From positions 54 through 64,053 of the forward strand of contig JBFXGK010000019.1 of the NCBI GenBank assembly GCA_050178035.1: DNA of 64,000 nucleotides. The letters are read 5' to 3'. The stretch comes from Kiritimatiellia bacterium (GTDB lineage: Bacteria; Verrucomicrobiota; Kiritimatiellia; JAKQHR01). Below, in pieces: positions 7,971 through 53,071 of the stretch (its first letter is position 1; each line of letters opens with the position of its first letter). The notes under the pieces are model-generated. The model was not told the origin of the DNA, did not search any database, and was given only the letters and a program-made list of their open reading frames with translations. Made by a program: the position numbers and the translations under genes.

Positions 7971-8729
7971 TCAGCCCGCAGGGTCGCCGATGGCCATCTG
8001 GGGATAGAGTTCGCCGATGAACTCCCGGATTTCCTCATGATGCCCGTCCGAATCTTCCTCCCGCAACCCCGACACGGCGATATAGGCCCATCGGTGGGCG
8101 ACATTATGGAAAATCCGGTCGGTGGACATCCAGATCATGCGCTGGACGTGATAGGGGGTCTCGCGCCCCTTCCCCACAAACCAGTATGCGTAATAGGTGA
8201 GCGCGGCAGGCGACCCCTCCGCGCGGCCCTGGGGTTCAAGATCCAGAACCATTACGTCGAGAGGCTTGCGGCCGGCGAGAGGAACTTCCAGCACATCCGT
8301 GTTCATGATCACCTGGCCCTGACCCGTCAGGCACATCTGCGGGCGGTGTATGCTGGAGCGATCCCCGCCGCTCAGCACGATAGACACGAACATTTGGCGG
8401 CCCGACGGCTGCGTGTAGCTTTTTTTGATCAGTATCGTGTCGGGGGGCAATACGGCCGCCTCATCATATGACATGCCGTGCAGGGGGCTCCCGCAGGAAG
8501 GGCACACATCGCGATCGGGAAGGCTGCTCGTCAGAAATGTTCCGCGGCACTCCTTGTTATGGCAGTAGCGCAGTTCATCCCCCCCCCACGCCCCGACGGC
8601 ATCCGGGAGTTCCACCTTAATGCCCGCCTCGTCCGTGATGTTCACATCCACGGTCAAAGCCAGCACCAGGCTGGTTAACGCCATCAGGATGATGACGATG
8701 ATGTACGGCCAGTAAGTCCGAGTTTCCAT
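7971..8729 (-). CDS. EpsI-family exosortase-associated protein (putative), with a C4 zinc-ribbon-like insertion
   Basis: N-terminal TM anchor. ELPDAVGAWGGDEL resembles the EpsI P..iG.W.G motif. Lies directly downstream of the exosortase. Extra CHNKEC...CPSCG cysteine quartet. Confidence 0.55.
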   Translation of the reverse strand: METRTYWPYIIVIILMALTSLVLALTVDVNITDEAGIKVELPDAVGAWGGDELRYCHNKECRGTFLTSSLPDRDVCPSCGSPLHGMSYDEAAVLPPDTILIKKSYTQPSGRQMFVSIVLSGGDRSSIHRPQMCLTGQGQVIMNTDVLEVPLAGRKPLDVMVLDLEPQGRAEGSPAALTYYAYWFVGKGRETPYHVQRMIWMSTDRIFHNVAHRWAYIAVSGLREEDSDGHHEEIREFIGELYPQMAIGDPAG

Positions 8730-9673
8730 GTTTCCCGCGCCTTGTTAAGATCCTTGTCAAGGAGATTGCCCAGCCCGACCATCAGCAGGATCGCCACAGC
8801 AAAAACAATGTATCCGGAATAGTCATGATAAAGACCCGTGGCAACATCCTCGCCAAACGCCTCGGCCACCAGCGCCAGGGCCGTGATGCGCACTATGTTG
8901 CCCGCGATGGCGAGCGGCACGGCGCAAATGAAAAGAATCCATTTCTTGAGCAGTGTCTTCTGGGTGAACCAGGCATACACCGCCGTCAGCGCTGTCATGG
9001 CCAGCAGGGACCGCAAACCGCTGCAGGGATCGGCGACGTCAAGCTTGAAACCCTGCGCCGTTTCGGAATAGATGCCCGAGCCCACACGCTTGACCGCGAC
9101 ACCCAGCCCGTTGATCAGCAGCACCGATATCTTTGTGGCCGTGATCCGCAGCGGGAACGTGAGGCTGTCCAGAAAGTTCAGGGGGATGCAGAAGATCAGG
9201 TACGAACAGGGGAAGATGATTTCTTTGGCCACCCGCCATCCCCAAAAATATAAGGGGATCCCCCATATCAGCAGAATGAGAGCAACCAGCGAAATGCGCG
9301 GATGGGTCACACGCGCCCCCAGCCAGTGAAACAAGAGCGCACAGATAATCAAGACTAGCCCGGCGCGGCATAATTTGCGTTCCGGGAATGCAGCCATGAG
9401 CGCTTCCCGCTGTCTCCAAAGCAGATACAGGCTGGCGGGAACAATGATCCAGCCATGAGAGAAGTTGCTGTACGGGCTGTTCCAGCGGTGAATAAGCCAT
9501 ATAAAAGCCGACCGGCCGGTGGCGGCGATGTTTTCCGTATTGCCCTGATAATGATACATGATGAAGATCAGGCCGAATATGATCGAAGTCAGCCCGATCC
9601 GGATGAAATCATCCGCCGACAGTGCCGCCAGATTCCAGCGCTCGCTCCAGATTTTTTCGTCAATTTTTTTCAT
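8684..9673 (-). CDS. Exosortase (XrtA/EpsH-like polytopic transpeptidase)
   Basis: Eight or more TM segments. Invariant exosortase motifs VADPCSGLRSL (catalytic Cys) and AGNIVRITAL (NxxR). Confidence 0.8.
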   Translation of the reverse strand: MKKIDEKIWSERWNLAALSADDFIRIGLTSIIFGLIFIMYHYQGNTENIAATGRSAFIWLIHRWNSPYSNFSHGWIIVPASLYLLWRQREALMAAFPERKLCRAGLVLIICALLFHWLGARVTHPRISLVALILLIWGIPLYFWGWRVAKEIIFPCSYLIFCIPLNFLDSLTFPLRITATKISVLLINGLGVAVKRVGSGIYSETAQGFKLDVADPCSGLRSLLAMTALTAVYAWFTQKTLLKKWILFICAVPLAIAGNIVRITALALVAEAFGEDVATGLYHDYSGYIVFAVAILLMVGLGNLLDKDLNKARETWKLGLTGRTSSSSS

Positions 9674-9709
9674 GGGAAAAGTCTACAAACTATACGCCCG
9701 GTCTTGCGG

Positions 9710-10255
9710 TCAAGTCAAATGACCGGCAAGAAATTCGGGCAAATATTTCATCCCGTCGAGGCGAAAATTCGCGGCGGTTTCAGTGCCGGAGGGGGCGATA
9801 CGCACCGTCCGGCAGCCCGCGGCAAGACCGGCGCGGACATCACTCTCATGATCCCCCACCATCCAGGAGCCGGGCAGGTCTAAATTGTGCCGGCGGGCCG
9901 CATCAAGCAACATGCCAGGAAGCGGCTTGCGACAATCGCACTCGTGATCGCCGTGCGGGCACACCATGATGTCCAGCAGCTCCAGGCCTGCCGCACTGAC
10001 CGCACTGCGCAAATGTTCATGAATGCGGTTGAGTTCATCCCATGTAATCAGGCCCCGTTCAATGCACCGCTGGTTGGTGACAATCACCGCGGCATAATCC
10101 CTTTGATTCACCACTCGCAGAGACTCCATGAACTCCGGCATAATGAAGAAGCGTTCCAGAGAGAGCACATAATATTCCTCGGGCGGCGGCGCGATATTCA
10201 CCACACCGTCCCGGTCAAAAAAAACGCACTTCCGCTTTTCAGTTTGCGTTTTCAT
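9710..10255 (-). CDS. gmhB: D-glycero-D-manno-heptose 1,7-bisphosphate phosphatase
   Basis: HAD motif I FDRDGVVN. GmhB zinc loop CPHGDHECDCRKPLPGML, close to E. coli CDCRKPHPGML. Confidence 0.85.
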   Translation of the reverse strand: MKTQTEKRKCVFFDRDGVVNIAPPPEEYYVLSLERFFIMPEFMESLRVVNQRDYAAVIVTNQRCIERGLITWDELNRIHEHLRSAVSAAGLELLDIMVCPHGDHECDCRKPLPGMLLDAARRHNLDLPGSWMVGDHESDVRAGLAAGCRTVRIAPSGTETAANFRLDGMKYLPEFLAGHLT

Positions 10256-12605
10256 CGCCTGTTAAATTTATCTCTTTTTCTGACCATGCAAACCCGTCAT
10301 CCGCTCGAAGAATCAGGCGGGTTGCCCCCATTTTGCGCACCTGATCCGCCGAAAACTCCGCCCCGCCATCCTGAATGCAAACCATCGGGTTTCTGAATTT
10401 CAGCGGTTTGCGCTGGACCAGGAAACCGAACTGTCCACTCCAGCCGGGTTTCTGCATTGCAGTGACGCACACCCGCTCGCCATTGACACGGCCTTCCACG
10501 GTTCCATCCCGCAGGCGGCGGACGGACAAGCCAATCCAGGTGTTTAGAGGGATATAGGCCCCGAACGATTCCAGCGGCATCATCTTTCCATCGCGGCAGA
10601 CGCCCGTGGTCCACGCGCTGGTATCGCCCGCCGCGCCAAACCATGCAAAGTTCGCTGAATCCTGAACATCGAAGAGCAGGAACGCGCCGTGCAGCATACT
10701 GTTCGCGCGTCCCGGAGGAATCATGATCTCGGCAGAAAACTCGCATGCGCCATCTACGCGATCACCAGAGAGGCTAACGCCATGAGGCTGGTCGGCGTCC
10801 GGCGTGAAGACCCCCTCCCGCCCCGCACCATCAATGTCGCCACAGTCCTCCAGTTTGAGTGGACGGAACCAGCGATATTGAATGTCATCGCCATCGGGAT
10901 CGTTTGCCGATACATGAACATTTCCGGAGTCCATGTTTGCAAGACTGGATATTGCCGGAGGAAGATTCATCCGGGCAATCTCAAAAGCAACAGGCTCAGA
11001 GCGCACTTCCATGCCGTCGTCATAAACCGCGTACGCCTGACAACGAACCGGTCCCGCGCCAAGAATCATCGGGTTGAAACGCCCGGCCTCAATCGGAATG
11101 CGAAATTCTCCATTCACAAGGCCGGTTTCTTTCGGTTCGCCGGCCGCGGCTATCGAAATTTCAACTGCATGAAACAAATCCACCTTCTGGCCCGCAGATA
11201 TCCCCTTGAGATTCACTGAACGGTTCCTGTTGTTCACAATAAAGCTTCTTTCATCAAAAGCCTGAACCGCAACGGGGCCCGGTTTGCGAACAACCGCGCG
11301 CAGTTCATGGTAACCGTCGGGCAGCTTTGATGAATCAAAAGACAGCATGGGCTCAGATCCGAAATCGGCCCGAAATACCCCATCCAGAAAATACTGAATT
11401 CTCGGCGGGAAGCGGGAGTTCTGGATTCCCGCATCTGTATAGAAAGTCACTTTCCCCTTCAGCGGGCCCTCCGGATCCATGCCGGCAAGCGTAACCGGAA
11501 AGATCTCCGCCCAGGGGGCCGCCAGCGGCTCGCCCACCATCAGCAGCTGGAGCGGACACTGCACAGCCAGATAATAGCTCTCGATGATGCTGCATCCGCT
11601 CATGTAGTGAGCAAAAAAGAACGGACTGGCGAACTTAGATCCAATGGCAAAAGGTTCAGCCACGGTCCCGGAAGAAGCTGTTGCTCCGGCGCGAAGCCAG
11701 ACCGACAGCTTGGTCTGGTGCTGTTCAATAAAATTTGCGGCATGACTGGTAAGATGTTCCGCTACCGAGCCCGGCATCAAGGATCCCGGAGTTGGGACAA
11801 TTTCATGGATGCCGTCAAACAGCCCCATCAGACCCTTTTGGCCGTCCGGATACTTGTCACGGATTTCCGCCCGGCCCTTCACCGATGCAAGAGCACCAAC
11901 AGCGGGCGAGTACTGCCAGTCCCGGCATTTCGAACGGATGTCGTCACGCTTAACGAATATCACAGGCTCCCGCGGACGGGTACCGTCAGCGGCTGCTCCG
12001 CGACGAAGAACATCCAGGGACTCATCAACGCTCAGTCCGCGGGCGCCTGTATAGGCCAGCATCATGGATGGCAGGGGCATCCTGTCGCCCAGTTTGAAAT
12101 TGAAGCTGTCAAACGACTCGGCCAGTTTCACCCGGTCCTGAGGAGTTTTGGGGCCACAAAAAAGCGGGGAAGTATATTTCCCTTGCGCAACGAGCTGATC
12201 GTCCGGCAGCTCATTCCTCATAAAGGTCATCCCGGTCAGCGAAACAGGTGAGCCCGTCGCACGAGTGATGCGAACCGGAAAGTCAGCAGAATAGATCCAG
12301 GCCAGAACATGATCCCCAATGCCGCGCCGCAGAATCTCCTCGTTTGCGGGAGCCCAAATGTGCTGCAGAAACTCCGCCTCGTTCATTTCCGCCTCGGACT
12401 TCAGCACGGATGCCGGCAGCGGCAGTCTGATGACATTGTGATGCGGGATGCGCCTCAAATGCGCATAATGGTTTGCCACCTCAAGAGAACGCGGCGAATT
12501 TTCGTTTACAAGGATGACAACTTCATGCGGCGCCAGGGCAGCACCAAGCGTTGTGCAGGAAAAGACGAGTAGACACGCCAGACGAGATATTGAAGAACGG
12601 ATCAA
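10239..12605 (-). CDS. Large secreted hypothetical protein (788 aa) adjacent to exosortase
   Basis: Signal peptide, then a long soluble region with SGCS and Cys-containing segments. No PEP-CTERM tail. Family not recognised. Confidence 0.55.
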   Translation of the reverse strand: MIRSSISRLACLLVFSCTTLGAALAPHEVVILVNENSPRSLEVANHYAHLRRIPHHNVIRLPLPASVLKSEAEMNEAEFLQHIWAPANEEILRRGIGDHVLAWIYSADFPVRITRATGSPVSLTGMTFMRNELPDDQLVAQGKYTSPLFCGPKTPQDRVKLAESFDSFNFKLGDRMPLPSMMLAYTGARGLSVDESLDVLRRGAAADGTRPREPVIFVKRDDIRSKCRDWQYSPAVGALASVKGRAEIRDKYPDGQKGLMGLFDGIHEIVPTPGSLMPGSVAEHLTSHAANFIEQHQTKLSVWLRAGATASSGTVAEPFAIGSKFASPFFFAHYMSGCSIIESYYLAVQCPLQLLMVGEPLAAPWAEIFPVTLAGMDPEGPLKGKVTFYTDAGIQNSRFPPRIQYFLDGVFRADFGSEPMLSFDSSKLPDGYHELRAVVRKPGPVAVQAFDERSFIVNNRNRSVNLKGISAGQKVDLFHAVEISIAAAGEPKETGLVNGEFRIPIEAGRFNPMILGAGPVRCQAYAVYDDGMEVRSEPVAFEIARMNLPPAISSLANMDSGNVHVSANDPDGDDIQYRWFRPLKLEDCGDIDGAGREGVFTPDADQPHGVSLSGDRVDGACEFSAEIMIPPGRANSMLHGAFLLFDVQDSANFAWFGAAGDTSAWTTGVCRDGKMMPLESFGAYIPLNTWIGLSVRRLRDGTVEGRVNGERVCVTAMQKPGWSGQFGFLVQRKPLKFRNPMVCIQDGGAEFSADQVRKMGATRLILRADDGFAWSEKEINLTGDENAN

Positions 12606-14020
12606 TAGGCCCCTTCTTTAGTCAAAAGCGCCCGGAAGGTCCGGAAAAGGATCACGGTATCCAGCCAAATGGACCAGTTGCGGACGTAATAGGTGTCCCA
12701 TCGCTCCATGCCTTCCGTGCCAGCCTCGCTTCGTCCGGAAACCTGCCACAGGCCGGTAATGCCCGGCAGCACGCTTTCGCGCAGCGCACAAACGCTTTTA
12801 GGGAGCTGCTGATGATGGTATTTGGGCAGAGGCCGCGGCCCGACCAGCGACATCTCCCCGCGAAGAACATTCACCAGCTGAGGAAGTTCATCCAGAGAAC
12901 TGCGGCGCAAAAATTTCCCGATCGGCGTGATGCGCGGATCGTTTTTCAGCTTGTAGTGGCTGTTCCACTCCTCGCGCAATTCGGGCTTTTCCGCCATTTC
13001 CTTTTCAAGAACTTCCTCTGCATTGGGCACCATGGTCCTGAATTTCCATGTTTTGAAAAGCTTCCCGTGCCGGCCAACGCGCTCCTGCCGGAACAGCGGG
13101 CTTGCGCCCGTCTGAAGCCGGATGAGCAGAGCCAGCAGGAGACACACAGGAATCCATACCGGCGACAACAGCAGCACCGCCACCAATTCCATCGTCTGCT
13201 TTGAAATTCGCGCAATGGGATTCAACAGATTGCGCTCAACCTCAAGCCCCAGCACACCCAGAAAATCGCGCGCGCTTACCCATAATGACGGAATATCAAA
13301 CAGATCCGGAATGATGATTACACGGCGGTAGTGCGAAAGCGGTCCTTCCAAAAGCATCATCAGGCGCTCTCTCGCAATACTGGGCGCCCCCAGCACAGCA
13401 AAGCTTGCATCGTGTGTTGAATCTTCCAATCCTCCGAGCACGGGGATACCCCGAACGCTGTCACCCGTCTTCAAATCATCATCAAAAACGCCGATCGGGA
13501 TATAGCCGAGGCCGGCCTCCTTGGTAATCACATCCAGCACATGCGAGACGGTCCTGTCGTTTCCGTAAATCGCCGTGGGCACACCCCAGCAATTGCGCTT
13601 GAGCAGGATTCTCTTAACCAGTGTGCGGGTAAACGGAATCAGCGGGACGCTGATTAGATACATCAGCGCGAATTTAATACGGCTGGTCACATCTGCCGTT
13701 TTGGTCAGGAACATGGCGGCAGCCGCCATGCCGAAAATCACCAGAAGCAGCGTCTGAATTCTGCGCAGCTCTTCGATGGGCCCGATCCCCCATGGCGGGG
13801 TGATCTTGAAAATCACCGCGCCCAGCATCCACATCGGAATCAGATACAGCGCCCGGGAGGGGGGAATATGGCTTTCGCGTAGAATATACCGCAGCAGACC
13901 CGCCAGCAGAATAGCCGCCAGCAACGCCAACGCGTCGCCCAGCAGAATGGCGCCCATATTCAAAAACATCCGGCGGTAATAGGAGAACCCGCCGCCCAAA
14001 GAACTGTCATTCAATTCCAT
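12602..14020 (-). CDS. EPS polyprenyl glycosylphosphotransferase (WbaP/bacterial sugar transferase family)
   Basis: C-terminal catalytic domain KRPLFRQERVG.HG..F...KFRTM and DELPQL..VL.G.MSLVGPRP. N-terminal TM domain. Start set to MELNDSS (14020) to avoid a 52-nt overlap. Alternative start at 14149. Confidence 0.8.
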   Translation of the reverse strand: MELNDSSLGGGFSYYRRMFLNMGAILLGDALALLAAILLAGLLRYILRESHIPPSRALYLIPMWMLGAVIFKITPPWGIGPIEELRRIQTLLLVIFGMAAAAMFLTKTADVTSRIKFALMYLISVPLIPFTRTLVKRILLKRNCWGVPTAIYGNDRTVSHVLDVITKEAGLGYIPIGVFDDDLKTGDSVRGIPVLGGLEDSTHDASFAVLGAPSIARERLMMLLEGPLSHYRRVIIIPDLFDIPSLWVSARDFLGVLGLEVERNLLNPIARISKQTMELVAVLLLSPVWIPVCLLLALLIRLQTGASPLFRQERVGRHGKLFKTWKFRTMVPNAEEVLEKEMAEKPELREEWNSHYKLKNDPRITPIGKFLRRSSLDELPQLVNVLRGEMSLVGPRPLPKYHHQQLPKSVCALRESVLPGITGLWQVSGRSEAGTEGMERWDTYYVRNWSIWLDTVILFRTFRALLTKEGAY

Positions 14021-14097
14021 GGCCGGTAGAATAAACAACCGCCCCGCGGCGCGCAAGCTTGGGTTCGCGCGCCGCGGGGCGGTTGTCGGCAGAAAAA

Positions 14098-15300
14098 CTA
14101 AATCAGCTGGCTGTAAAAATTGAGCAAACGCGGAGCCTGATGCCTCCATTCCAGTTCGTTAACCATCCTGCGACGGCCGGTTTCGCCCATTTCTTTACGT
14201 CGTGCTTCATCGGTCAGCAGCTCCAATATTTTGGCGGCCAGGTCCTCAACATCATTGGGACGGGCGTAAAGAGATGCGTCGCCGGCGGACCGCCGACCCT
14301 CCAGTAGATCATACTGAACAATCGGGCGGCCCAGCGCCATGTACTCAAGAATTTTGTTCATGGTGGATTTGTCGTTGAGCGGGTTCAGCGGATCGCAATC
14401 CACGCACACATCGCAGCTTGAAAGTCGCGCAATCATCTCCTCGTCAGGAACCCGGCCCGTGAATTCCGTCTGCGATTCAATGCCCAGGCCGGCGGCCAGT
14501 TGCTTCAGATCCTCAAGGCACGATCCGCCACCAATAAAACAGAAATGAATGTCGTCCCGTCCCCTGTCTTTGATCAAATAGCCGGCAGCGCGCACCAGAT
14601 GGTCCACCCCGTCAAACTCGCCCATGACACCCATATAACCCACCAGCCACTTGCGGCCATTTTTATATCGCTCGTCTGGGGCAATGGGATTGAAGCGCGA
14701 GAGGTCCGGCCCGCTCCTCACCACCTGGACATTTTCGGGCTTTTTGCGCCCGCGATCAATGGCCACCTGTTTATACGATTCGTTGGTGGAAATCACCCGG
14801 TCAGCCAGCGCGAAGGTTAAACGCTCCGCCAGCCGCATCATTTGGTAAAAAAAACCGCGTTTATTGAATTTCGATTCGTACAGCTCAGGCGTCAGATCAT
14901 GGTGGTCGAAAACAAATTTAGTTCGATGAAACAGTTTGAACCACAGCACCACCAGAAATATCAGATCCGGCGGATTGCACGCATGTATGACGTCAAAACC
15001 AAAATCCCTCCGCACCTTACGCGCGAGGCGCCATTCGGCCCACAGCGCGCTGCTGTATTCGCGCAGATAGCCAAGCGCTGAACTTTTTTCCGGTGGAAGC
15101 CGGTGACGGTAAATATGTATGCCGTCCAAATCCTCGCGCAGGCTTTCGCAGCCCTTGCCAGTCGGACAGATCACGCAAACCTGATAGCCGGCCCTTGCCA
15201 GCGTGGTAGACTCCATCCAGACGCGCCGGTCAAAGGGCACGGGAAGGTTCTCTACAATAATCAGAATGCGGCCGGGTGGTCTACCAGGAGATACCGTCAT
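14098..15300 (-). CDS. Glycosyltransferase family 4 (GT-B, group 1)
   Basis: GT4 C-terminal E..ALGRPIV-type motif and Rossmann-like halves. Confidence 0.8.
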   Translation of the reverse strand: MTVSPGRPPGRILIIVENLPVPFDRRVWMESTTLARAGYQVCVICPTGKGCESLREDLDGIHIYRHRLPPEKSSALGYLREYSSALWAEWRLARKVRRDFGFDVIHACNPPDLIFLVVLWFKLFHRTKFVFDHHDLTPELYESKFNKRGFFYQMMRLAERLTFALADRVISTNESYKQVAIDRGRKKPENVQVVRSGPDLSRFNPIAPDERYKNGRKWLVGYMGVMGEFDGVDHLVRAAGYLIKDRGRDDIHFCFIGGGSCLEDLKQLAAGLGIESQTEFTGRVPDEEMIARLSSCDVCVDCDPLNPLNDKSTMNKILEYMALGRPIVQYDLLEGRRSAGDASLYARPNDVEDLAAKILELLTDEARRKEMGETGRRRMVNELEWRHQAPRLLNFYSQLI

Positions 15301-41038: not shown

Positions 41039-41048
41039 GAAATATTCC

Positions 41049-41549: not shown

Positions 41550-41599
41550 GGCAACACCCCACAAGGCAGAAATTTCGGATTAGTGGAACGAAAGGAAAC

Positions 41600-41695: not shown

Positions 41696-41704
41696 GTTGT
41701 CGGG

Positions 41705-41887: not shown

Positions 41888-41890
41888 CGG

Positions 41891-43720: not shown

Positions 43721-44196
43721 TAGAACTGTTTCCTGTATCGCGAAACGTCCCCAACCGGCTTGCGAGATGTCCAATAGGTGGGTTCGGCCGTATGAATCTG
43801 GCGATGAAGAGGGTCCTTCCCTTTTAGTTTCAGCGCCAGATGCATAGGGAAGAAGCACAGATAGTAGAATGGCGTCAGTAGCACCCATGTAAGGACTTCA
43901 CCCACCCGTTGCCCCAGCCGCTTTCCAAAGCGTTCAATGGCGGAAAATACCGGTGGAATGAATAATCCCGACACCAGCACAACTCCGGAAAAACTCCAAA
44001 CAACAAACCCCATAGTCCTATGACCCAGCCGCCAGAAAAGAAAAGCGCCAATAACCGCCATAACCGCGGTTTGAATTACAGCTGCTTTTTTTGAATTTTG
44101 CCCTTTTGAGGCGTCAGCTTTTTTCGCTGCGCCTTCCCGCCAGGGCCAAACCACTGATGAAACCGTATTACTCATAGAACTGCTGTATCGATCCAA
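43720..44196 (-). CDS. SxtJ-like small membrane protein (putative)
   Basis: 158 aa with 3-4 TM helices. Overlaps the carbamoyltransferase start. Confidence 0.45.
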   Translation of the reverse strand: MDRYSSSMSNTVSSVVWPWREGAAKKADASKGQNSKKAAVIQTAVMAVIGAFLFWRLGHRTMGFVVWSFSGVVLVSGLFIPPVFSAIERFGKRLGQRVGEVLTWVLLTPFYYLCFFPMHLALKLKGKDPLHRQIHTAEPTYWTSRKPVGDVSRYRKQF

Positions 44197-44420
44197 TAAA
44201 CCTGCTCACTGAAGTTACGGCGGGTGTCTCTACAACAAAATGCCGGGCAATGAAAGGAAAAATCCGCAAGGTCAGCCGGCGGAGCCCCCACCCGGTTGAA
44301 TTCACTGCCGCTTTATTATTCGGCTTGCCCTGCTGGGTTTAATCGTTAAGCTTGCCAACCGGTTTGTGTCAGGTGAATTAGACACGAAATACAAGCGATC
44401 AGGAAAGCCGGAGCACAAAT

Positions 44421-45569: not shown

Positions 45570-45589
45570 AGCACAAGTGCGGAAAAACC

Positions 45590-45690
45590 TGATAATTTTG
45601 TTCATTTTCCACGATTTCTGCTGTTTTTAGGCCGTTTTTGAGCATTTTTGGCTGTTTTTGAACGTTTTTTGCTTTTTTTAGGATATTCTA
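45590..45690. repeat. Phased T-tract tandem repeat, copy D
   Basis: ttcattttccacgatttctgctgtttttaggccgtttttgagcatttttggctgtttttgaacgttttttgcttttttta. Shares tttttgagcatttttgg with copy A. Confidence 0.55.
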
Positions 45691-45926
45691 CGTGTTTGGG
45701 GGCGCGTTTATCCACCAACCCGGAGGCAGACTTCGTCCCGGTGAAATCCCGGCGGGACGGGATTGCACGGACCGCAATCTAATTTCCGGACGTCACGCAT
45801 ACGCATAACGTTCAATACGCATTGAACATATCATACGACACGGCAGACGCAAGAACAATGCGCCAAAATCTTTTTTCTTGGGGGAGGCGGCTCCGGTCTG
45901 ATAGTCTCATAAACAGTGTTCTGACC

Positions 45927-46748
45927 ATGAATACCTTTTTCGAACTGGTGATCGCAGAACTCCTGTCGCAAGGCGTTCTTCGGCGCGACAGCCGCATCCT
46001 GGTGATGTGCGGCGGCGAAACCGACCACGCTGTGCTGATGAAGCTCGGCTTCACAAATGTTGTGATCAGCAATGTGGACGAGCGGAGAGACCGGAATGAC
46101 ACCGCCCAATACGCCCCGTTTGAGTGGAGCTACCAAAATGCCGAATCCATGACGTTCGAAGACCGCAGCTTCGAGTTTGTGATCGAGCACTCGGGCCTGC
46201 ACCACCTGCCCTGTCCACAGCGCGGCATTGCGGAAATGTACCGCGTGGCGTCAAAAGGAATCATCGGATTCGAGGCAAACCGCAATCTTTTCACCACCCT
46301 CGGCGTAAAACTTGGATTCGGACAGGAATATGAGACGGCGGCGGTTTTCTACAACGATCTCAAATACGGCGGCATTTCCAACAGCGCCATCCCCAATTAT
46401 GTCTACCGCTTCACCGCAGGCGATATCCGGCGAACCGTCTCAACGCTGAATCCCGCTGCACGGCACCGTTATCGGTTCTGGCACGCCACGCAAATCCCGG
46501 CGGCTGCGCAAAATATTAAAAATCCTCTGGTCCGCTTCGGATTGCGGACATTCGGAAGCCTGCTGAAGCTGGCGGGAAGATCTTGTCCGTTTCTCGCGAA
46601 CAACATGGCCTTCTTTGCGGCCAAACCCGCCATTCCGGATGATCTGCATCCATGGCTGAAGTTGGAAAACGGGAACATCGTTCCCAACCGGGAATTCCTG
46701 GAGAGAAAGTACCGGCCGGGCCGGGTTAACGGCCCAGCGCCTCTTTAA
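45927..46748 (+). CDS. Class I methyltransferase-like protein
   Basis: ILVMCGGETDHAVLMKLGF...FEFVIEHSGLHHL resembles the SAM-MT motif I/II layout. Start chosen at MNTFFEL. Alternative start at 45822. Confidence 0.5.
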   Translation: MNTFFELVIAELLSQGVLRRDSRILVMCGGETDHAVLMKLGFTNVVISNVDERRDRNDTAQYAPFEWSYQNAESMTFEDRSFEFVIEHSGLHHLPCPQRGIAEMYRVASKGIIGFEANRNLFTTLGVKLGFGQEYETAAVFYNDLKYGGISNSAIPNYVYRFTAGDIRRTVSTLNPAARHRYRFWHATQIPAAAQNIKNPLVRFGLRTFGSLLKLAGRSCPFLANNMAFFAAKPAIPDDLHPWLKLENGNIVPNREFLERKYRPGRVNGPAPL

Positions 46749-48612
46749 GAAGCTGAATGTTCAGCATGACCATTGTCGGAGGCTCCGGCAGACGGGCCGC
46801 CCGCTCAAATACTTCCAGAGCCTCTTCGTGTCGGCCGTTCAGTCGCAGAGCCAAACCCAGCTGAGTGATGTAGAATGAATCCTTCGGATAATCGTTCACG
46901 ATCTGTCGAAGAAGTTCGATGGCCCTGTCGTTTTCGCCAAGGGCCGAATGCACCTTGCTCTTGCCGTAGACAACTTCCAGCGCGTACGGATTGCGCTTGA
47001 GCGCCTCGTCATAGCTTTCCAGCGCCAGTCGGCTGTTTTCCTTTTTAGCCTCCGCATCGAGGCTCCAGAATCCGCGTGTCTTGTGAATGTGCCCCATACC
47101 CTTCCACGGTTCCCAGAATCCGGGATCAATTTTGACAGCCTTCTGAAAATACTGCAGAGCCTTCTCGTCTTTCAGTTCGCCGCGGGCCTTTTCCCCGAGT
47201 CGGAAAAGAACGTCCGACGCCAGCGCCTGCGCCGACAGGAGCAGAAGGATTACAGCGCACAGCGCGCCGCACAGGGAAAACGCCCGGGCAGATATCCGGC
47301 GGGGCTGAAAAGCTCCCGCGGCGTACAGCTCGGCCGAAACCAGCCCCCCCAGCAGAATCAGGATGTGGCTGTTGGCAGAGATGTGGAAGTTGAAATCGAA
47401 AACAGCATGCGCAAGACTGGCCGCGGACGCCCCCAGAAACCCCGCCGTGAGAAATTCCGCATGCCCATGCAAATCCCTCTTCAAGTAAATGAAAAGCAGA
47501 CGTCCGAGACCCCAGAAAACAAAGACCGCAAACAGCACCAGGCCCACCGCGCCATATTCCGCAAGGATCTGAACATACTCGTTATGAGCATACATCACCC
47601 ACGACTGGTAAGTATGCGACCTGTATTTCGGCTCCACCCAGCGGTAGGTGCCCGGCCCGCAGCCGAAAATGGGGTTATCCTTCACGATCCCCATGGCGTC
47701 GGACCACAGCTGTGTGCGGACATCTCCCGTTCGGGCGTATTCGATCCGGTTTCTCACGACCGGAACGGTTGTCCAGAGAACGAAGCCAAGACCAGCGACC
47801 AGCAGCGGCAGGCCAATAAAACTCACATAGAATAATTTTCTGTTCCGCTTCCAGAGAACAAGCCAGAGCGTCGCCACAAAACCGACCGCCCCCCCGATCC
47901 AACCCGAACGAGACTGGGTCAGCACCAGCACCGGCGCAATCAGGGCCAGCGTATATCCAGAGAAGATGCGCAGCATTCCGCCCGCGCCCGGCGAGAAAAG
48001 AAAAGCCAGGCAGATGCACATAACAATCTCCAGCAGATTGGCAAAATGATTGGGGCACATATAGGTGCCGCTGGCGCGCATGCCATACGTTTCCGGCCGC
48101 ACGAGGTTCAGAACCATGCGCGAGCCGCGCACGTGCAATACGAGCGCATACCAGAGGATGAGTGAAACAACAACGACGAGAAGGCCGGTGATCCATTTCC
48201 AGCGGTTTCCGCGGTGGCCCATGTTCGTCCACGCCAGCAGGATCAGCACGGCGTTTGCCAGCATCACAAAATGAAAGCGGGTGATGTGGCTGATTTCAGA
48301 ACCCGGAATCCTGAACGCCACATAGGCCAGCAGAGCCAGTCCCGCAAAGAAACCGGGCGGGATGCGGATCTCGCGCAGATCCGGCGCAAACAGCGGCCGG
48401 AGAAAAAACAGCAGAAGGCCGGCCAAGGAAAACATCATCAGCAGCGCAATAGACCAGGTTCTGACGCCGCCATACAGGAACAGGCCCGCCCATGCAGGCG
48501 CCAGAAGGAATATCAGGGTGATTCCGTCATAAAAACCACGACGCAAGGACACCGGGGCAACCTGACTGCGGCGGCGGCGGCGGGATCCCTGATGGTCTTC
48601 AGGCGGTTGCAT
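46726..48612 (-). CDS. O-antigen ligase-family membrane protein fused to C-terminal TPR domain (PEP-CTERM-system-type O-glycosyl ligase candidate)
   Basis: About 12 TM helices with a Wzy_C/O-antigen-ligase loop (LTQSRSGWIGG). C-terminal ~150 aa carry 3-4 TPR repeats. Confidence 0.65.
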   Translation of the reverse strand: MQPPEDHQGSRRRRRSQVAPVSLRRGFYDGITLIFLLAPAWAGLFLYGGVRTWSIALLMMFSLAGLLLFFLRPLFAPDLREIRIPPGFFAGLALLAYVAFRIPGSEISHITRFHFVMLANAVLILLAWTNMGHRGNRWKWITGLLVVVVSLILWYALVLHVRGSRMVLNLVRPETYGMRASGTYMCPNHFANLLEIVMCICLAFLFSPGAGGMLRIFSGYTLALIAPVLVLTQSRSGWIGGAVGFVATLWLVLWKRNRKLFYVSFIGLPLLVAGLGFVLWTTVPVVRNRIEYARTGDVRTQLWSDAMGIVKDNPIFGCGPGTYRWVEPKYRSHTYQSWVMYAHNEYVQILAEYGAVGLVLFAVFVFWGLGRLLFIYLKRDLHGHAEFLTAGFLGASAASLAHAVFDFNFHISANSHILILLGGLVSAELYAAGAFQPRRISARAFSLCGALCAVILLLLSAQALASDVLFRLGEKARGELKDEKALQYFQKAVKIDPGFWEPWKGMGHIHKTRGFWSLDAEAKKENSRLALESYDEALKRNPYALEVVYGKSKVHSALGENDRAIELLRQIVNDYPKDSFYITQLGLALRLNGRHEEALEVFERAARLPEPPTMVMLNIQLLKEALGR

Positions 48613-48621
48613 CGGCAGAAA

Positions 48622-49662
48622 CTAGAAGACGCTGCGAGGAACCACAATCACGTCTTCCGCCTCAATGGAGATATCCTTCTCAGGATTCTTCTCGATGTAT
48701 TTCACATCGTAGATGTCCGAATTGTCCCCGCGGATCAGCTTCACCTTCTTGGGCTGGGCAAACTCCGTGTAGCCGCCGGCCGTTGCAATGGCCTGCACAA
48801 GGGTCATGCCGCTAAGCAGCGCGTAACGCCCGGGCAGCCGGACTTCACCCCGAACGTAATAGCTCTGCTGCTGCATCACCACATTGACGCTGATAGTCTT
48901 GTAAATTTCAGCTTTTAGATAAGCGTCGCGGATGGCCCGCTCAAGTTCCGAAGTGGTCTTCCCTGCGGCGAGGACCTCATTGATGTAGGTCAGTGTCACA
49001 TACCCGCCCTCGTCAATCACATCTTGAATTTCCTCTTCGCGCGGGATCCCGCGAAGATAGATCGCGAGCACGTCTCCGGATTTCAGCTGGTAAGGGGATG
49101 TCCTCCCGGTATTGCCATATTCCCGGGACGTTTCGCCACCCGAAGCCGGAGCAGCAGCCGCCGGAATCCGGGGCGGCTCCGGCTGCGGATCAACCTTCAC
49201 AGGAAGCGGAGTGGCCGCAGCGGTCCGTTGAGTATGGGGTCGAATCGGCGAAGACGCAGGGGGCGGGATGGTCTGAGGAGAAGCCACAGGAACCATAGCG
49301 CGCGGCTGTGAGGCCTTCTTCCGAGCGGCCTCGTCGGCGCGCGCCTGTTTTTCCGCCAGTTTCCGGGCTTCTTTTTCGCGGGCCTCGCGCTCCTCCGCAA
49401 GCCGTTTTGCGGCCTTTTCCTGTTCTCTCTTTGTTTGCTGCTCCTGCGCAATACGCGCCTCTTCCTCCCGTTGGAGGCGGGCCTCTTCTTCCCGGATGGT
49501 TCTTTCGTAGGCCTGCTCGTATTCACGAGCCTGCCGGGTGTAGCGGGAGGAATAATCGGGATAAGGATAGCCGGAAGGACGGTTGGACCGGCATCCGGAC
49601 ACCGCGGAAACCATAAACGCGCAAGCAAGAATGATCCAGATTCTCATCTTCATGCTGATCAA
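48622..49662 (-). CDS. wza: Polysaccharide export protein (Wza/EpsA family, SLBB domain) with charged low-complexity N-terminal region
   Basis: Lipoprotein signal (AVSGC). A E/R/K/A-rich ~90-aa segment and a Pro-rich linker precede the Poly_export and SLBB core (YQLKSGDVLAI...PGRYAL). Confidence 0.7.
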   Translation of the reverse strand: MISMKMRIWIILACAFMVSAVSGCRSNRPSGYPYPDYSSRYTRQAREYEQAYERTIREEEARLQREEEARIAQEQQTKREQEKAAKRLAEEREAREKEARKLAEKQARADEAARKKASQPRAMVPVASPQTIPPPASSPIRPHTQRTAAATPLPVKVDPQPEPPRIPAAAAPASGGETSREYGNTGRTSPYQLKSGDVLAIYLRGIPREEEIQDVIDEGGYVTLTYINEVLAAGKTTSELERAIRDAYLKAEIYKTISVNVVMQQQSYYVRGEVRLPGRYALLSGMTLVQAIATAGGYTEFAQPKKVKLIRGDNSDIYDVKYIEKNPEKDISIEAEDVIVVPRSVF

Positions 49663-51767
49663 GCCTTTCCCTCCGGTTCCACTTTCGCGGCGGCAGGCTC
49701 GGGCTGCGCCTCTTCGCCCGGCGCGTAGTAATGCGAATAGTAGGAATGATAGTAGTAGTAGTAATCATCCCGCATGATGTTGATGTTGTTCAGAACCACA
49801 CCGATCAGTTTCCCGCCGACATTTTCAATGATCTGCTTGGCGCGCGAAGAAATCATCTTGGGGTATTTCCGGTACTGGATCACCAGCAGGACGGCATCCA
49901 TTTCACTGACCAGAATGGAGGCATCGCTCACCCCCATCACCGGCGGAGAGTCGAAGAATACGTAATCGTAGCGGCTCTTCAGGTTCTTGACCAGTTCGCG
50001 CAGGCGCTGGGTGTCGAGCAGGCCCAGCGAAGAACGCGGGAGCTTCCCGCTTGGGAGAAAGTGCAGGTTTGGAACGCTCGTGGCCTTGATGGTTTCCTCA
50101 ATCGGCACATCGCGCATCAGCACATTGGTGAGACCAAACCGGTTGGACATGCCCAGGATTGTGTGCTGCACGGGACGGCGCAGATCGGAGTCCACAATCA
50201 GCACCTTGTCGCCAAGTTGGGCGCAGACAAACGCCAGATTGAACAGTGTTGTGGATTTACCTTCGCCGACCCCGCCGCTCACCATCGCATAGGCGCCGCC
50301 GGGAACTTTCGCCGCAAACTGCATATTGGTTCGCAGCACGCGATAGGCCTCTGCATGGGGACTGTCCGGCCCCTCCTCGATCAGCGGGCGCACTTTCTGA
50401 GGGATCACGCCCAGAACAGGCAGACCCATGGACCGCTCCACGTCGTCCACGGTCTTGACCGACGTGTCGAGGTACTCGATGAAATAGGCCAGGCCGAGTG
50501 CGGCACCCAATCCCACGAAGAGGCTCAGCAGGATGTTCATGAACACATTCGGGCTTGCCGCCCGGAGAGGAGGCTCCGCCGGATCCACAACCTCAACGGC
50601 CGTGCGCGGAACCTCAAGAGAAATGCCTTCCTGGGCTATACGCGCCTGCAGCGCCTCAAGAATGGAGCGCTGCACATCCAGCTCCCTCTGCGCTTTTTCA
50701 AACGGAAGGAATTTATCGCGCGACGACTCGATGTCCTCTACGCGAGCCTCACCAAGCGCCATTTCCAGGGCCTCGTATTTCTCGCGGGCGACGGCATAGT
50801 CGGCCTCAAGACCCTTCTTCAAACCCGCCAGAGCGTTTTTCAGCTGCTGCTTGAGCTCATCGCGACCGGCCACCAGACGCTTCACTTCCGGGTGGTTGGC
50901 TCCGTAAGTTTCCAGAGCTAGCTTGAGATTCACCTCCGTGTTCACCAGATCGGAACGGATGCGTGAAAGCGCGGGATCATTGACAATATAGGCCGATGCA
51001 TTCAGAAGATCCTCCCCCTCGAGATTGATCAGCTGTTCGTACCGGGCCTTGCGCACCACGCGATCCACATTGGCCGCAAGACGGTCGGCCTCAAGCTGCG
51101 AGAGGCGAATCTTGTCAACGCTCACGCCCCGGTCGATCACCGAAACGCCCAGTTCCTCACGTATGGTTTCGACACGGTTTTCAACCTCATCCACCTTGTC
51201 CTGCTGCTTTTTCATTTCGTTCTGCAGCGCATCGATGGCCGATTTGATTTCACGGCGCTTGGCCTGAAGGCGGTGATCGCGGTAGACATTGGCCACCTCG
51301 TTGGCAATGCGTGCGGACTCCTGCGCATCTGTGCTGTAGACGGAAATTTCGATGAGGCTGGTGTCGCGCGCCTGCGCCACGCTAATAGAACCGTTCAGAA
51401 CCTCGTAAGTCTCCTCCCGGGAGAGGGCTCGCTCTCCATCGGTAAAGCGCTTGCCCCAGATTTCCTCCAGGTTCAGGTTTCTGATCACCTCGTTAAGGAT
51501 GGGTTTGGATCGGATGATTTCGTACTGCGTGCGCAGGAAAAAGGGGTTATAGGCGGAATTGAGCTGGCGCTCGAAGACATCAATGTCCGTAGCATCCTGC
51601 CGCACCAGAATGCGGGCAGTGGCGGCATATTTCTTCGGCAGCATGAACGTTACTCCGGTGCCGGTGAGCACCACCAGAAGAGTCACTGCGAGGATGACTT
51701 CCTTGCGGGAGCGGATGACCCGCCAGTAGTCCAGAAAATGCAGTTGGGCTTCGTTCGACTGTTCCAT
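49659..51767 (-). CDS. wzc: Polysaccharide co-polymerase / BY-kinase (fused Wzc-type chain-length determinant and tyrosine autokinase)
   Basis: N-terminal Wzz TM anchor and a long coiled-coil periplasmic domain. Second TM. Walker A VSGGVGEGKST and A' VLIVDSDLRRP. C-terminal Tyr cluster YYYYYHSYYSHYY. Confidence 0.8.
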   Translation of the reverse strand: MEQSNEAQLHFLDYWRVIRSRKEVILAVTLLVVLTGTGVTFMLPKKYAATARILVRQDATDIDVFERQLNSAYNPFFLRTQYEIIRSKPILNEVIRNLNLEEIWGKRFTDGERALSREETYEVLNGSISVAQARDTSLIEISVYSTDAQESARIANEVANVYRDHRLQAKRREIKSAIDALQNEMKKQQDKVDEVENRVETIREELGVSVIDRGVSVDKIRLSQLEADRLAANVDRVVRKARYEQLINLEGEDLLNASAYIVNDPALSRIRSDLVNTEVNLKLALETYGANHPEVKRLVAGRDELKQQLKNALAGLKKGLEADYAVAREKYEALEMALGEARVEDIESSRDKFLPFEKAQRELDVQRSILEALQARIAQEGISLEVPRTAVEVVDPAEPPLRAASPNVFMNILLSLFVGLGAALGLAYFIEYLDTSVKTVDDVERSMGLPVLGVIPQKVRPLIEEGPDSPHAEAYRVLRTNMQFAAKVPGGAYAMVSGGVGEGKSTTLFNLAFVCAQLGDKVLIVDSDLRRPVQHTILGMSNRFGLTNVLMRDVPIEETIKATSVPNLHFLPSGKLPRSSLGLLDTQRLRELVKNLKSRYDYVFFDSPPVMGVSDASILVSEMDAVLLVIQYRKYPKMISSRAKQIIENVGGKLIGVVLNNINIMRDDYYYYYHSYYSHYYAPGEEAQPEPAAAKVEPEGKA

Positions 51768-51874
51768 ATCTGTTCCGTCTCTAAAACGCCAGTGAGGCGC
51801 ACAGTGCGCCCCACTAGCTTTCTGTCAGCAAATATACATTCACGCCGACCCCGCAGGGGGCGGCTGAATTCATC

Positions 51875-53071
51875 TTAAAGCTGAACTTTCCAGCCAAGAT
51901 GTATGCGGTTGCGCTCGTAGTCGCCGCGCAATTCTGAATCCACATCATAATACTGCCAGCCGGTTTCAAGCCAGTTGGACTTCGTGACCTGATAGGTCAG
52001 GCGCGCGCTGACCTGCGTTATGTCTTCGGATCCGCTCGTGCTCAGCAGAGTGGTTTCTTCCTCGGCGCCCGTGGCAATGTCATCCTCGCTGTAGTCGCCA
52101 ATCGAATACCCGGCCGAAAGATAAGCCGACAGGCGGGCCGTGATGTCATGCGCAATGCTGGCAAAAAAGCGGGTGCGCTCCTGATTGGCAAACGGGTACA
52201 CATCCGTCTCCATCAATGCAAAGCTCGCGCCCAGCGAAATGCGGGTGGCCGGCGACGGGAGGAAGGTCAGAGAGGCTTCGCCATAGGGCGAGGATTCGCT
52301 TCCGGATTCCGTTTCCATGTCTTTTTCCATGAAGCCCGCGCGCGCGCTGCCCAGCAGGCTCGCGCTGAAAATCTGCTCCAGGCCCAGGCCAATCTCCACG
52401 GTGTCAGATCCGCGATCCACCACATCCGTGTTCTCATATTCCATGGACTCCGCGCGGAACTCCGCCAGCACGGCCGTTTCAGGAACAAACTGATTGCGAA
52501 GCGTCAAACCCCCGACCAGAATGTCGTAGTCGTTTTGATCCGCAACCACATCATCATCGTAGCGCAGGAGGATGTGGCGTCCGGCAATATCAAAGCGCGT
52601 CTCAGGACGCAGATGGATGGAAAGATTTCCATTGACCGTATTATAGGTGTAGTCATTCTGCTGGCGAACAACGGTGCCGCGATCCATCAATTCCGGCAGC
52701 TCAGCGATCTTCAGGGATTCCTTCACACCCAGCGCAAGGCGCGGAGTGAATTCATGATTCAAAATAAAGTCGAGGGCATGATGAATATCTTCATTGTCTT
52801 CGTCGCGATCAGCCCAATAGACAAAGCCCGGCATGTAGCGCAGGCTGAGGAAGGTCTGCTCAAGACTGATGTTCCCGATGAACTCAATTTCCTCAATGAC
52901 TTTAACGCTCTCGTCTTCTTCGCCTTTGACGGCTTCCCGTATGTTGTCGTCATATTCCAGGCGCAGGCGGTTAACCAACTGATAGCCGCGGCCTTCACCC
53001 TGGGCAAGGACAACGCCCTGCAGCGCAAAAAGAACCGCAACAGAAGCCAGCAAAAATGTCTTCCAGTTCAT
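51875..53071 (-). CDS. Outer-membrane beta-barrel protein (EPS-locus associated)
   Basis: Signal peptide. Alternating amphipathic beta-strands. C-terminal aromatic/hydrophobic ending (WKVQL). Confidence 0.55.
   Translation of the reverse strand: MNWKTFLLASVAVLFALQGVVLAQGEGRGYQLVNRLRLEYDDNIREAVKGEEDESVKVIEEIEFIGNISLEQTFLSLRYMPGFVYWADRDEDNEDIHHALDFILNHEFTPRLALGVKESLKIAELPELMDRGTVVRQQNDYTYNTVNGNLSIHLRPETRFDIAGRHILLRYDDDVVADQNDYDILVGGLTLRNQFVPETAVLAEFRAESMEYENTDVVDRGSDTVEIGLGLEQIFSASLLGSARAGFMEKDMETESGSESSPYGEASLTFLPSPATRISLGASFALMETDVYPFANQERTRFFASIAHDITARLSAYLSAGYSIGDYSEDDIATGAEEETTLLSTSGSEDITQVSARLTYQVTKSNWLETGWQYYDVDSELRGDYERNRIHLGWKVQL

Follow-up and report, generated by a model that had tools for sequence, protein, structure and literature searches.

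A Probable Wzx/Wzy-Type Polysaccharide Locus Joined to an Exosortase/EpsI Module in an Uncultured Kiritimatiellia Bacterium

Organization of the locus

The gene cluster described here occupies positions 7971-53071 of a 64-kb stretch of DNA from an uncultured Kiritimatiellia metagenome-assembled genome (MAG). The whole 64-kb stretch that was analyzed is referred to as the window. The cluster is probably a locus for the biosynthesis and export of a Wzx/Wzy-dependent heteropolysaccharide, of the capsule or exopolysaccharide (EPS) type, with its 3' end physically joined to an exosortase/EpsI sorting module. It belongs to the already known type of exosortase-associated exopolysaccharide locus. Kiritimatiellota are abundant anaerobes that degrade, and also produce, complex and partly sulfated polysaccharides, and our full-text literature search returned no paper linking exosortases with this phylum. 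The classical pairing of an exosortase with an EPS locus extends to Kiritimatiellota in this cluster, with a clade-specific partner set.

The Wzx/Wzy pathway is represented in this one locus by a WbaP-type priming transferase, a Wzx flippase and a protein with a Wzy_C domain, all with hidden Markov model (HMM) scores above the cut-offs. Export of the Wza/Wzc type, which combines a polysaccharide export protein of the outer membrane (OPX) with a polysaccharide co-polymerase (PCP) of type 2a, is represented by a lipoprotein with Poly_export and SLBB domains and by a Wzz protein with a bacterial tyrosine (BY) kinase and a Tyr-rich tail. These essentials are present in single copy and are spread over the span (WbaP at 12.6 kb, Wzy at 30 kb, Wzx at 37 kb, and PCP/OPX at 49-51 kb). 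Their distribution over different blocks argues for one functional locus. A preliminary description of the window had read functions from the raw sequence and proposed a combination of Wzx/Wzy, Wza/Wzc and exosortase-system genes. All of its functional calls were borne out by the HMM scans, in which Wzx, Wzy, Wza, Wzc, the outer-membrane barrel, the O-antigen-ligase-TPR protein, the exosortase, the EpsI-like protein and the SGNH hydrolase and methyltransferase of the plus strand were matched.

In the proposed pathway, the WbaP-type enzyme would load hexose-1-phosphate onto undecaprenyl phosphate, and five or six glycosyltransferases of the GT4 and GT2 families would assemble the repeat unit. 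Two WecB epimerases (UDP-ManNAc) and a UGDH-family dehydrogenase (uronic acid) may supply the precursors. The unit may be decorated with pyruvyl, carbamoyl, methyl and possibly acyl or O-acetyl groups. Wzx would flip the unit, and the Wzy_C protein of 503 amino acids (aa) would act as the polymerase. The polymer would be exported through Wzc (PCP and tyrosine kinase), Wza (OPX) and the EpsL-like barrel, and heparinase-II/III-like and beta-helix proteins may trim or modify it. The exosortase and EpsI would cut the PEP-CTERM anchor off secreted proteins whose genes lie elsewhere in the genome, and these proteins would join the polysaccharide layer, possibly through a covalent protein-glycan link.

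The listing of open reading frames (ORFs) gives a near-continuous minus-strand array of long ORFs from 53071 down to 7971, and the ORF and junction analysis puts the coding share of this region at about 96%. We counted 33 credible genes, 31 on the minus and 2 on the plus strand. The figure of about 40 genes in the preliminary description was thus too high. Its statement that almost all genes lie on the minus strand holds, as an SGNH hydrolase and one methyltransferase at 44421-46748 are the sole plus-strand genes. If orientations were independent, the two-sided binomial p for 31 of 33 genes sharing a strand would be about 1e-7, and the strand bias is far beyond chance. The features are listed below from the export end to the exosortase end. 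Family calls come from NCBIfam and Pfam HMM scans, and bit scores are quoted against (vs) the curated cut-off.

51875-53071, minus: EpsL-like outer-membrane beta-barrel, 398 aa, with signal peptide (PF10082 BBP2_2, 67.3 bits vs 23.7)
49659-51767, minus: Wzc-type polysaccharide co-polymerase and BY-kinase, 702 aa (TIGR01007, 161 bits vs 108; Pfam Wzz, GNVR, AAA_31)
48622-49662, minus: Wza/OPX polysaccharide export lipoprotein of the outer membrane, 346 aa (Poly_export, 43.6 bits; SLBB, 45.7 bits; lipobox SAVSGC)
46726-48612, minus: O-antigen-ligase-like Wzy_C membrane protein with C-terminal TPR repeats, 628 aa (Wzy_C, 88 bits; many TPR models)
45822-46748, plus: class I S-adenosylmethionine (SAM) methyltransferase, 308 aa (Methyltransf_11, 31.4 bits vs 21.2)
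44421-45569, plus: SGNH/GDSL hydrolase, 382 aa (Lipase_GDSL_2, PF13472, 41.4 bits vs 32.9)
41891-43720, minus: NodU/CmcH-type carbamoyltransferase, about 609 aa from ATG 43720 (Carbam_trans_N, 336 bits; Carbam_trans_C, 244 bits)
41049-41549, minus: GbsR/MarR-type winged-helix regulator, about 166 aa (NF047500 CudC, 61.7 bits, below cut-off; Pfam HTH_IclR, MarR)
40097-41038, minus: MurB, UDP-N-acetylenolpyruvoylglucosamine reductase, 313 aa (NF010480, 296.6 bits vs 259)
38952-40025, minus: WecB-2, UDP-GlcNAc 2-epimerase (TIGR00236, 283.6 bits vs 210)
38057-38935, minus: SAM methyltransferase (Pfam Methyltransf_11/23/12)
36380-37921, minus: Wzx/MOP-family flippase (Polysacc_synt_3, 76.5 bits vs 23; Polysacc_synt, MatE)
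35211-36383, minus: GT1/GT4-like glycosyltransferase, weak match (Glycos_transf_1, 24 bits, just under the cut-off of 26.4)
34174-35214, minus: polysaccharide pyruvyl transferase (PS_pyruv_trans, 112.7 bits)
33167-34177, minus: nitroreductase-family protein, 336 aa (Pfam Nitroreductase, 70.2 bits)
32036-33166, minus: WecB-1, UDP-GlcNAc 2-epimerase (TIGR00236, 506 bits)
30919-32028, minus: GT4 glycosyltransferase (multiple GT4 NCBIfam matches, all below equivalog cut-offs)
29359-30870, minus: candidate Wzy-type polymerase, 503-aa membrane protein (Wzy_C, 44.7 bits vs 31.7)
28516-29346, minus: GT2 glycosyltransferase, WcaE-like (TIGR04009, 76 bits, below cut-off; other GT2 models)
27194-28381, minus: GT4 glycosyltransferase (many GT4 NCBIfam matches)
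25362-27197, minus: secreted right-handed beta-helix protein with a pectate-lyase-like fold (Beta_helix, 63 bits; NosD, 30 bits)
23719-25284, minus: DUF362 protein, 521 aa (Pfam DUF362, 104.9 bits)
22322-23722, minus: PaaK/F390-synthetase-like adenylate-forming ligase (NF045666, 98 bits, below cut-off; TIGR02155, TIGR02304)
20652-22325, minus: polytopic membrane protein, 557 aa, possibly GT-C-like (only NF047440, 24.7 bits vs 200)
18493-20655, minus: fusion of a Zn-ADH-like and a Gfo/Idh/MocA oxidoreductase, 720 aa (ADH_zinc_N and GFO_IDH_MocA; PDB sequence matches)
16569-18485, minus: heparinase II/III-like protein, 638 aa (Hepar_II_III_C, 159 bits; Hepar_II_III_N, 62.6 bits)
15281-16579, minus: nucleotide-sugar 6-dehydrogenase of the UGDH family (TIGR03026, 404 bits vs 190)
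14098-15300, minus: GT4 glycosyltransferase (TIGR04063 stp3, 97.9 bits vs 442, not that equivalog)
14037-14084, minus: perfect 23-bp GC-rich hairpin in the 140-nt gap before wbaP (-74.6 kcal/mol, z = -6.65)
12602-13957, minus: WbaP-type polyprenyl-phosphate hexose-1-phosphate transferase, priming (TIGR03022, 422 bits vs 403; Bac_transf, 207 bits)
10239-12605, minus: secreted TIGR03790-family protein, 788 aa (TIGR03790, 93.7 bits vs 67)
9710-10255, minus: HAD-IIIA phosphatase, GmhB/histidinol-phosphatase-like (TIGR01656, 120.7 bits vs 84)
8684-9673, minus: exosortase, 329 aa, of an unnamed XrtA-like clade (TIGR02602, 163 bits vs 105.6; PF09721, 184.3 vs 25.7)
7971-8729, minus: EpsI/DUF3485 partner, 252 aa, with a transmembrane (TM) anchor and Cys-knuckle insert (PF11984, 41.1 bits vs 26.1)

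The Wzc protein carries the Walker A sequence GEGKST, a C-terminal Tyr cluster DDYYYYYHSYYSHYY and the C-terminal tail YYYYYHSYYSHYY, and its gene is joined to wza by a 4-nt TTGA overlap. On the E. coli equivalog models, Wzc scores 134 bits vs 1068 and Wza 30.5 vs 333, so that both are assigned at the family level only. The EpsL-like barrel is likewise below the cut-off of the EpsL model TIGR03014 (33.6 bits vs 275). The GbsR/MarR-like protein is the only regulator in the locus, and its homologues directly adjoin the exosortase in two of the related loci described below (L018 and L051). For the 557-aa membrane protein, Pfam and PDB sequence searches gave no meaningful match.

Two further ORFs were rejected as genes. 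The 158-aa ORF at 43720-44196 is without homology, overlaps the over-extended carbamoyltransferase ORF and is probably an artefact; the Pfam match of the carbamoyltransferase begins at residue 59, which makes ATG 43720 its likely start. The 436-aa plus-strand ORF at 32423-33733 is antisense to WecB-1 and the nitroreductase gene, and we regard it as GC-driven and spurious because of the 506-bit score of the minus-strand WecB-1.

The exosortase and its EpsI partner

The ORF at the 3' end that bears the exosortase motifs is a member of the general exosortase family (TIGR02602, 163 bits vs 105.55; PF09721, 184.3 vs 25.7), and it also matches the exosortase/archaeosortase signature TIGR04178 (77 bits vs 23). 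The motif-based call of the preliminary description therefore stands. The only invariant residues of the family are Cys-x-Gly, Asn-x-x-Arg and His-x-x-x-Gly (Haft et al. 2006, PMC1569441). The corresponding motifs of the present protein, C217-S-G219, N259-I-V-R262 and H283-D-Y-S-G287, are invariant across 18 aligned members of its clade. On the subtype models of NCBIfam, the protein scores below the cut-off of every named Xrt subtype: XrtA 163.3 vs 208, XrtD 156.9 vs 400, XrtV 138 vs 313, XrtW 137 vs 425, XrtB 113 vs 275, and the others lower. The name given by NCBI to clade members is only 'exosortase/archaeosortase family protein'.

The epsI gene overlaps the stop of the exosortase gene. Its product passes PF11984 but scores 21.1 bits vs 42.8 on TIGR02914 and about 24 bits on EpsI types B and V, whose cut-offs are at least 220. 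The EpsI-like protein of the preliminary description is thus probably a divergent EpsI. Residues 56-79 form a Cys-knuckle pair (YCHNKEC ... VCPSCG) between the TM anchor and the DUF3485 core, and this insert looks like a zinc-ribbon within the predicted periplasmic domain. Among 77 homologues, 71% retain C56, C76 and C79, and 57% retain C61, a residue for which His is often substituted. The knuckle cysteines are lost in Pontiellaceae-like members.

Tentatively, the exosortase may represent a phylum-wide, unnamed subtype with partners of its own, namely the EpsI with its Cys/His-knuckle, the GmhB-like HAD-IIIA phosphatase, the WbaP-type transferase and the TIGR03790 protein. The conserved block 7971-18485 might then be a dedicated machine that couples the release of PEP-CTERM proteins to a lipid-linked glycan, and not an exosortase placed in an EPS locus by chance. 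The clade-specific partner set of HAD phosphatase, TIGR03790-lectin protein and Cys-knuckle EpsI could mark a separate subtype if phylogeny confirms it.

Related loci in other genomes

The exosortase has more than 1,100 relatives in the databases. In GTDB contigs, with one genome per species, 234 loci encode a relative, and nearly all of them are labelled as Kiritimatiellota or as Verrucomicrobiota MAGs of the Planctomycetes-Verrucomicrobia-Chlamydiae (PVC) group. We counted neighbors in the best 80 of these 234 loci, with homologues sought within 10 kb of the exosortase; individual loci are given by number. Of the 75 loci with enough flank, 61 have EpsI as the next gene downstream of the exosortase. 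A homologue of the HAD phosphatase adjoins the Xrt-EpsI pair in 32 of the 80 loci in two arrangements, either upstream of xrt or downstream of epsI, which suggests functional linkage rather than inherited synteny. WbaP (23/80), TIGR03790 (16/80) and, upstream of the exosortase, Wzy_C-TPR (10/80) homologues are also found in this neighborhood.

The close relatives share with the window only the 10.5-kb exosortase-proximal block, 7971-18485. Colinearity between the window and the 95%-identical relative L002 (GCA_029559795.1), at 93.5% DNA identity, extends from the left flank as far as 18485, where the heparinase gene starts; past this point the two sequences part. In the 85%-identical relative L089, beta-helix and methyltransferase genes are inserted between the ADH/Gfo and heparinase genes. 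Beyond 18485, both relatives differ from the window in gene content and order. The GC content is lowest at 18.5-46.7 kb (0.538); the end blocks have 0.564 and 0.572, and the flanks 0.59.

Some genes of the variable middle also occur near exosortases elsewhere. DUF362 genes are divergent neighbors of the HAD-exosortase genes in L053 and, without the other two genes named below, in L005-L008 (at about 7700-9300) and at least four further species loci (L010, L012, L015 and L020). In L053 (positions 1-4381), the ADH/Gfo fusion, the PaaK-like ligase and DUF362 lie together, divergent from HAD-xrt, with 49-67% identity to the genes at 18493-25284 of the window. The same Kiritimatiellia genome has two tandem exosortase-EpsI pairs at 4701-8486 of L053, whose exosortases are 34% (first) and 53% (second) identical to that of the window.

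PEP-CTERM substrates and regulatory partners

The preliminary description had noted the absence of a PEP-CTERM protein, of PrsK/PrsR and of PrsT from the window, and our scans agree. A regex scan for PEP-CTERM tails over all window ORFs of at least 40 aa returned only spurious short ORFs and the C-terminus of Wzx. PrsK and PrsR had no HMM match in the window, and the only PrsT signal came from the TPR region of the protein at 46726-48612, a sub-threshold match (27.7 bits vs 312) for which PrsT was rejected. These absences had been taken as a sign that the regulatory and substrate partners are elsewhere or different. The absence of the Prs proteins is confirmed but is not a puzzle, since PrsK, PrsR and PrsT are linked to Proteobacteria, and Table 1 of the original survey lists none in Verrucomicrobium spinosum (Haft et al. 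2006, PMC1569441). It is expected outside that group and hence uninformative here. None of the partner genes in the cluster reaches the cut-off of an XrtA- or XrtB-system equivalog. The XrtA-system scores are 118 vs 279 for pepcterm_ChnLen, 117.5 vs 231 for TyrKin, 58 vs 180 for pepcterm_export, 148 vs 393 for EpsB_2, 98 vs 442 for stp3 and 33 vs 188 for PEP_O_lig_1.

Genuine PEP-CTERM tails, with VPEP or IPEP, a TM helix and an Arg-rich end, are encoded beside homologous exosortases in L047, L050, L055 and L072, and the clade therefore most likely recognizes the classical PEP-CTERM signal. The L047 protein is a 939-aa autotransporter-repeat protein ending in ...VVPEPTAISLLGLAGIMMLVGRRLRFVRR, and it passes TIGR02595 (16.8 bits vs 16). 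The other three (L050, 13200-14222; L055, 5773-6939; L072, 13271-14221) are trypsin-like proteins with TAxH and GDSGGG motifs and IPEP-TM-RR tails. Their genes come directly after xrt-epsI, with wbaP on one side and the TIGR03790 gene on the other, and the window has no counterpart.

The TIGR03790 protein

The TIGR03790 gene recurs between wbaP and xrt, which suggests that it is a member of the exosortase module. The family match covers residues 28-348 of the protein and is above the cut-off. An NCBI protein from a Kiritimatiellia MAG is 100% identical to it, in line with the source of the window. An AlphaFold2 model from a 42-sequence alignment has a predicted local distance difference test (pLDDT) score of 89.5 and a predicted TM-score (pTM) of 0.91. 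In this model, the C-terminal half contains Ig-like domains and a beta-sandwich that matches CBM66/galectin-type lectins (TMt 0.77, E about 1e-7), and the protein is secreted and probably carbohydrate-binding. The N-terminal alpha/beta domain of 365 residues, modelled alone, has a pLDDT of 91. It gave no significant Foldseek match against the PDB (best E = 6.5e-3, TM at most 0.25), and its matches to periplasmic-binding-protein-like and CHAT-protease-like folds were too weak to use. A PDB sequence search with the protein also gave no meaningful match.

Transcription units

The preliminary description had taken the many short overlaps as an argument for translationally coupled polycistronic units. 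Overlaps of 4 nt were found at 9 of the 30 same-strand junctions (7 ATGA and 2 TTGA), together with 1 zero-gap TAAATG junction and 4 longer overlaps of 11-46 nt, but a single polycistron for the whole array is unlikely. Real gaps of 71-341 nt at seven places make several transcription units likely. These gaps are 51875/51767 (107 nt), 41891/41549 (341 nt), 40097/40025 (71 nt), 28516/28381 (134 nt), 25362/25284 (77 nt), 14098/13957 (140 nt) and, if Wzx starts at ATG 37921, 38057/37921 (about 135 nt).

Sigma-70 promoter and terminator scans gave numbers near the shuffle expectation (15 vs 11.2, 21 vs 13.7 and 5 vs 6.0 promoters), and we cite such sites only where they lie in real intergenic gaps, as hints only. 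A promoter-like TTAAAA-16-TGnTATAAT is present at 41672-41645, inside the 341-nt gap before the GbsR/MarR-type regulator. A second promoter-like sequence, TTGACT-18-TATAGT, lies shortly before xrt at 9718-9689, and the stop of the Wzy_C-TPR gene is directly followed by a terminator-like hairpin (46724-46712). The 23-bp hairpin at 14037-14084 lies between the stop of the GT4 gene and the likely start of wbaP. It is kept in L002 and L003, where two C-to-T changes preserve G-U pairs. As its tail is only weakly T-rich, the hairpin may serve in attenuation, processing or stability and not as a classic terminator. We favor one functional locus which would be composed of about five to six transcription units.

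Alternative explanations

Several observations weigh against the reading of the cluster as one Wzx/Wzy-dependent locus joined to the exosortase module. The intergenic gaps, the strong hairpin and the terminator-like site speak against one transcript. The array has an apparently bona fide murB at its middle, flanked by the regulator and WecB-2. This gene could be either an embedded housekeeping gene or an EPS-specific paralogue, and no murB homologue was seen in 88 related loci. Homologues of Wza, Wzc and EpsL occur within 10 kb of the exosortase in 0 of the 80 compared loci. In several relatives, the exosortase is beside housekeeping genes (gyrA/B, efp, following xrt) and polysaccharide genes are divergent on the opposite strand, so that the adjacency of the cluster's two ends here could be partly accidental. 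The 64-kb window also contains no PEP-CTERM substrate, and the cleavage role of the exosortase is a prediction here.

These points bear most directly on the possibility that two or three independent loci lie side by side, which we consider rather doubtful. The cluster would then consist of an exosortase module (heparinase, UGDH, GT4, WbaP, TIGR03790, HAD, Xrt and EpsI; 7971-18485), a horizontally exchanged variable glycan cassette at 18.5-46.7 kb, and a generic Wza/Wzc export module at 46.7-53.1 kb which may serve other polymers. Such an origin agrees with the end of colinearity with L002 and L089 at 18485, the lower GC of the middle, the hairpin that parts wbaP from the upstream genes, and the absence of export genes near the exosortase in the 80 other genomes. 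However, the window has one priming transferase, one flippase and one PCP/OPX set, and the blocks need each other for a Wzx/Wzy product. A variable middle between conserved ends is also the normal architecture of a single capsule or O-antigen locus, and the conserved ends and exchangeable low-GC mosaic middle seen here fit this usual picture.

The role of the Wzy_C-TPR protein leaves room for two other explanations. If it acted as a PglL/TfpM-like O-oligosaccharyltransferase onto exosortase-released PEP-CTERM proteins, the cluster would be a protein O-glycosylation locus in which Wza/Wzc export surplus polymer. Glycosylation of PEP-CTERM proteins has been proposed (PMC1569441; epsSMASH preprint, 10.64898/2025.12.21.693542), and homologues of the protein are found just upstream of Xrt-EpsI in 10 of the 80 loci. 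The protein matches TfpM (26 bits) and TIGR03097, 'putative O-glycosylation ligase, exosortase A system-associated' (33 bits vs 188), but both scores are weak and far below the curated cut-offs. The separate Wzy_C protein and the full Wzc/Wza set point to a long polymer, and no acceptor protein is encoded within the window; we consider this explanation improbable. A lipopolysaccharide (LPS) O-antigen/core locus, with the Wzy_C-TPR protein as the WaaL ligase and the HAD phosphatase as a true GmhB for heptose synthesis, is very unlikely. It would account for the Wzy_C 'O-antigen ligase' domain and for WbaP, the classical O-antigen initiator, and the best match of the HAD phosphatase is indeed a D,D-heptose-1,7-bisphosphate phosphatase model. 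The scores on the GmhB equivalogs are nevertheless below the cut-offs (134.8 bits vs 178; 103 vs 150), and neither gmhA nor hldE was found near the phosphatase gene. The Wza/Wzc/EpsL-like export set is typical of capsule or EPS and not of O-antigen, which uses Lpt.

Comparison with known systems

A capsule- or EPS-type locus joined to an exosortase module most resembles the PEP-CTERM/EpsH loci, such as the 40-kb region of Rhodospirillum rubrum and the methanolan eps cluster (epsH-epsI) of Methylobacillus sp. 12S (PMC1569441). An eight-TM exosortase with the three motifs is followed immediately downstream by EpsI, the pair is located within an array of about 40 kb of glycosyltransferase, chain-length-determinant, sugar-transferase and export genes, and the PEP-CTERM substrates are mostly encoded elsewhere. 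The present cluster differs in its phylum, in the sub-threshold scores on the XrtA/XrtB-system equivalogs, in the absence of PrsK/R/T, in the recurrent HAD-IIIA phosphatase and TIGR03790-lectin partners, and in the Cys-knuckle insert of EpsI. The xrt/epsI genes, the TIGR03790-lectin protein and the HAD phosphatase provide gene targets for studies of matrix building.

A Wzx/Wzy-type cluster with PCP/OPX export and an xrtA-like exosortase is also shared with the zooglan biosynthetic gene cluster (BGC) of Zoogloea and the exopolysaccharide BGC of Sphingomonadales, for which released PEP-CTERM proteins have been proposed to join the polysaccharide layer (epsSMASH preprint, 10.64898/2025.12.21.693542). 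Those clusters are from Pseudomonadota and have a recognizable XrtA, whereas the Kiritimatiellia cluster resembles them in architecture without being orthologous, and even relatives of 95% identity have a different variable middle. The group 1 capsule/colanic acid pathway of E. coli has in common with it the WbaP/WcaJ-type initiation, Wzx, Wzy, a Wzc BY-kinase with a Tyr-rich tail and a Wza lipoprotein with Poly_export and SLBB domains. In contrast to that pathway, no Wzb phosphatase was detected in the cluster, the scores are at subfamily or domain level and not at equivalog level, and an EpsL-like barrel, a Wzy_C-TPR protein and the exosortase/EpsI pair are additional. Within the same phylum, Pontiella (Kiritimatiellales) has a putative EPS cluster for a sulfated glycosaminoglycan-like polymer, for which sulfotransferases were reported and exosortase, Wza and Wzx go unmentioned (van Vliet et al. 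2020, PMC7356697). Both are large clusters rich in GT2 and GT4 genes, with methyltransferases and a TuaB/Wzx-like flippase, but no sulfotransferase was detected in the present one.

Flanking genes and boundaries

The cluster is flanked by unrelated genes, on the left by an amidohydrolase, a xanthine/aldehyde dehydrogenase set and a coiled-coil protein, and on the right by a GHL10 hydrolase-like protein, Rrf2 and the Pst phosphate transporter. An Rfam gathering scan and a tRNA scan of the whole window found nothing. A secreted 195-aa protein with no family match is encoded at 53125-53712 on the minus strand, directly upstream of the EpsL-like gene with a 53-nt gap. The 839-aa GHL10 (PF02638) hydrolase-like protein at 53806-56325 on the plus strand is divergent from it. 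Either protein could belong to the locus, and the true right boundary may therefore be at about 53.8 or 56.3 kb. On the left flank, L002 has an extra 4.1-kb block at 15063-19186 (FGE-sulfatase domain, ferredoxin, Usp and small ORFs), which is absent from the window at about 4614-4872.

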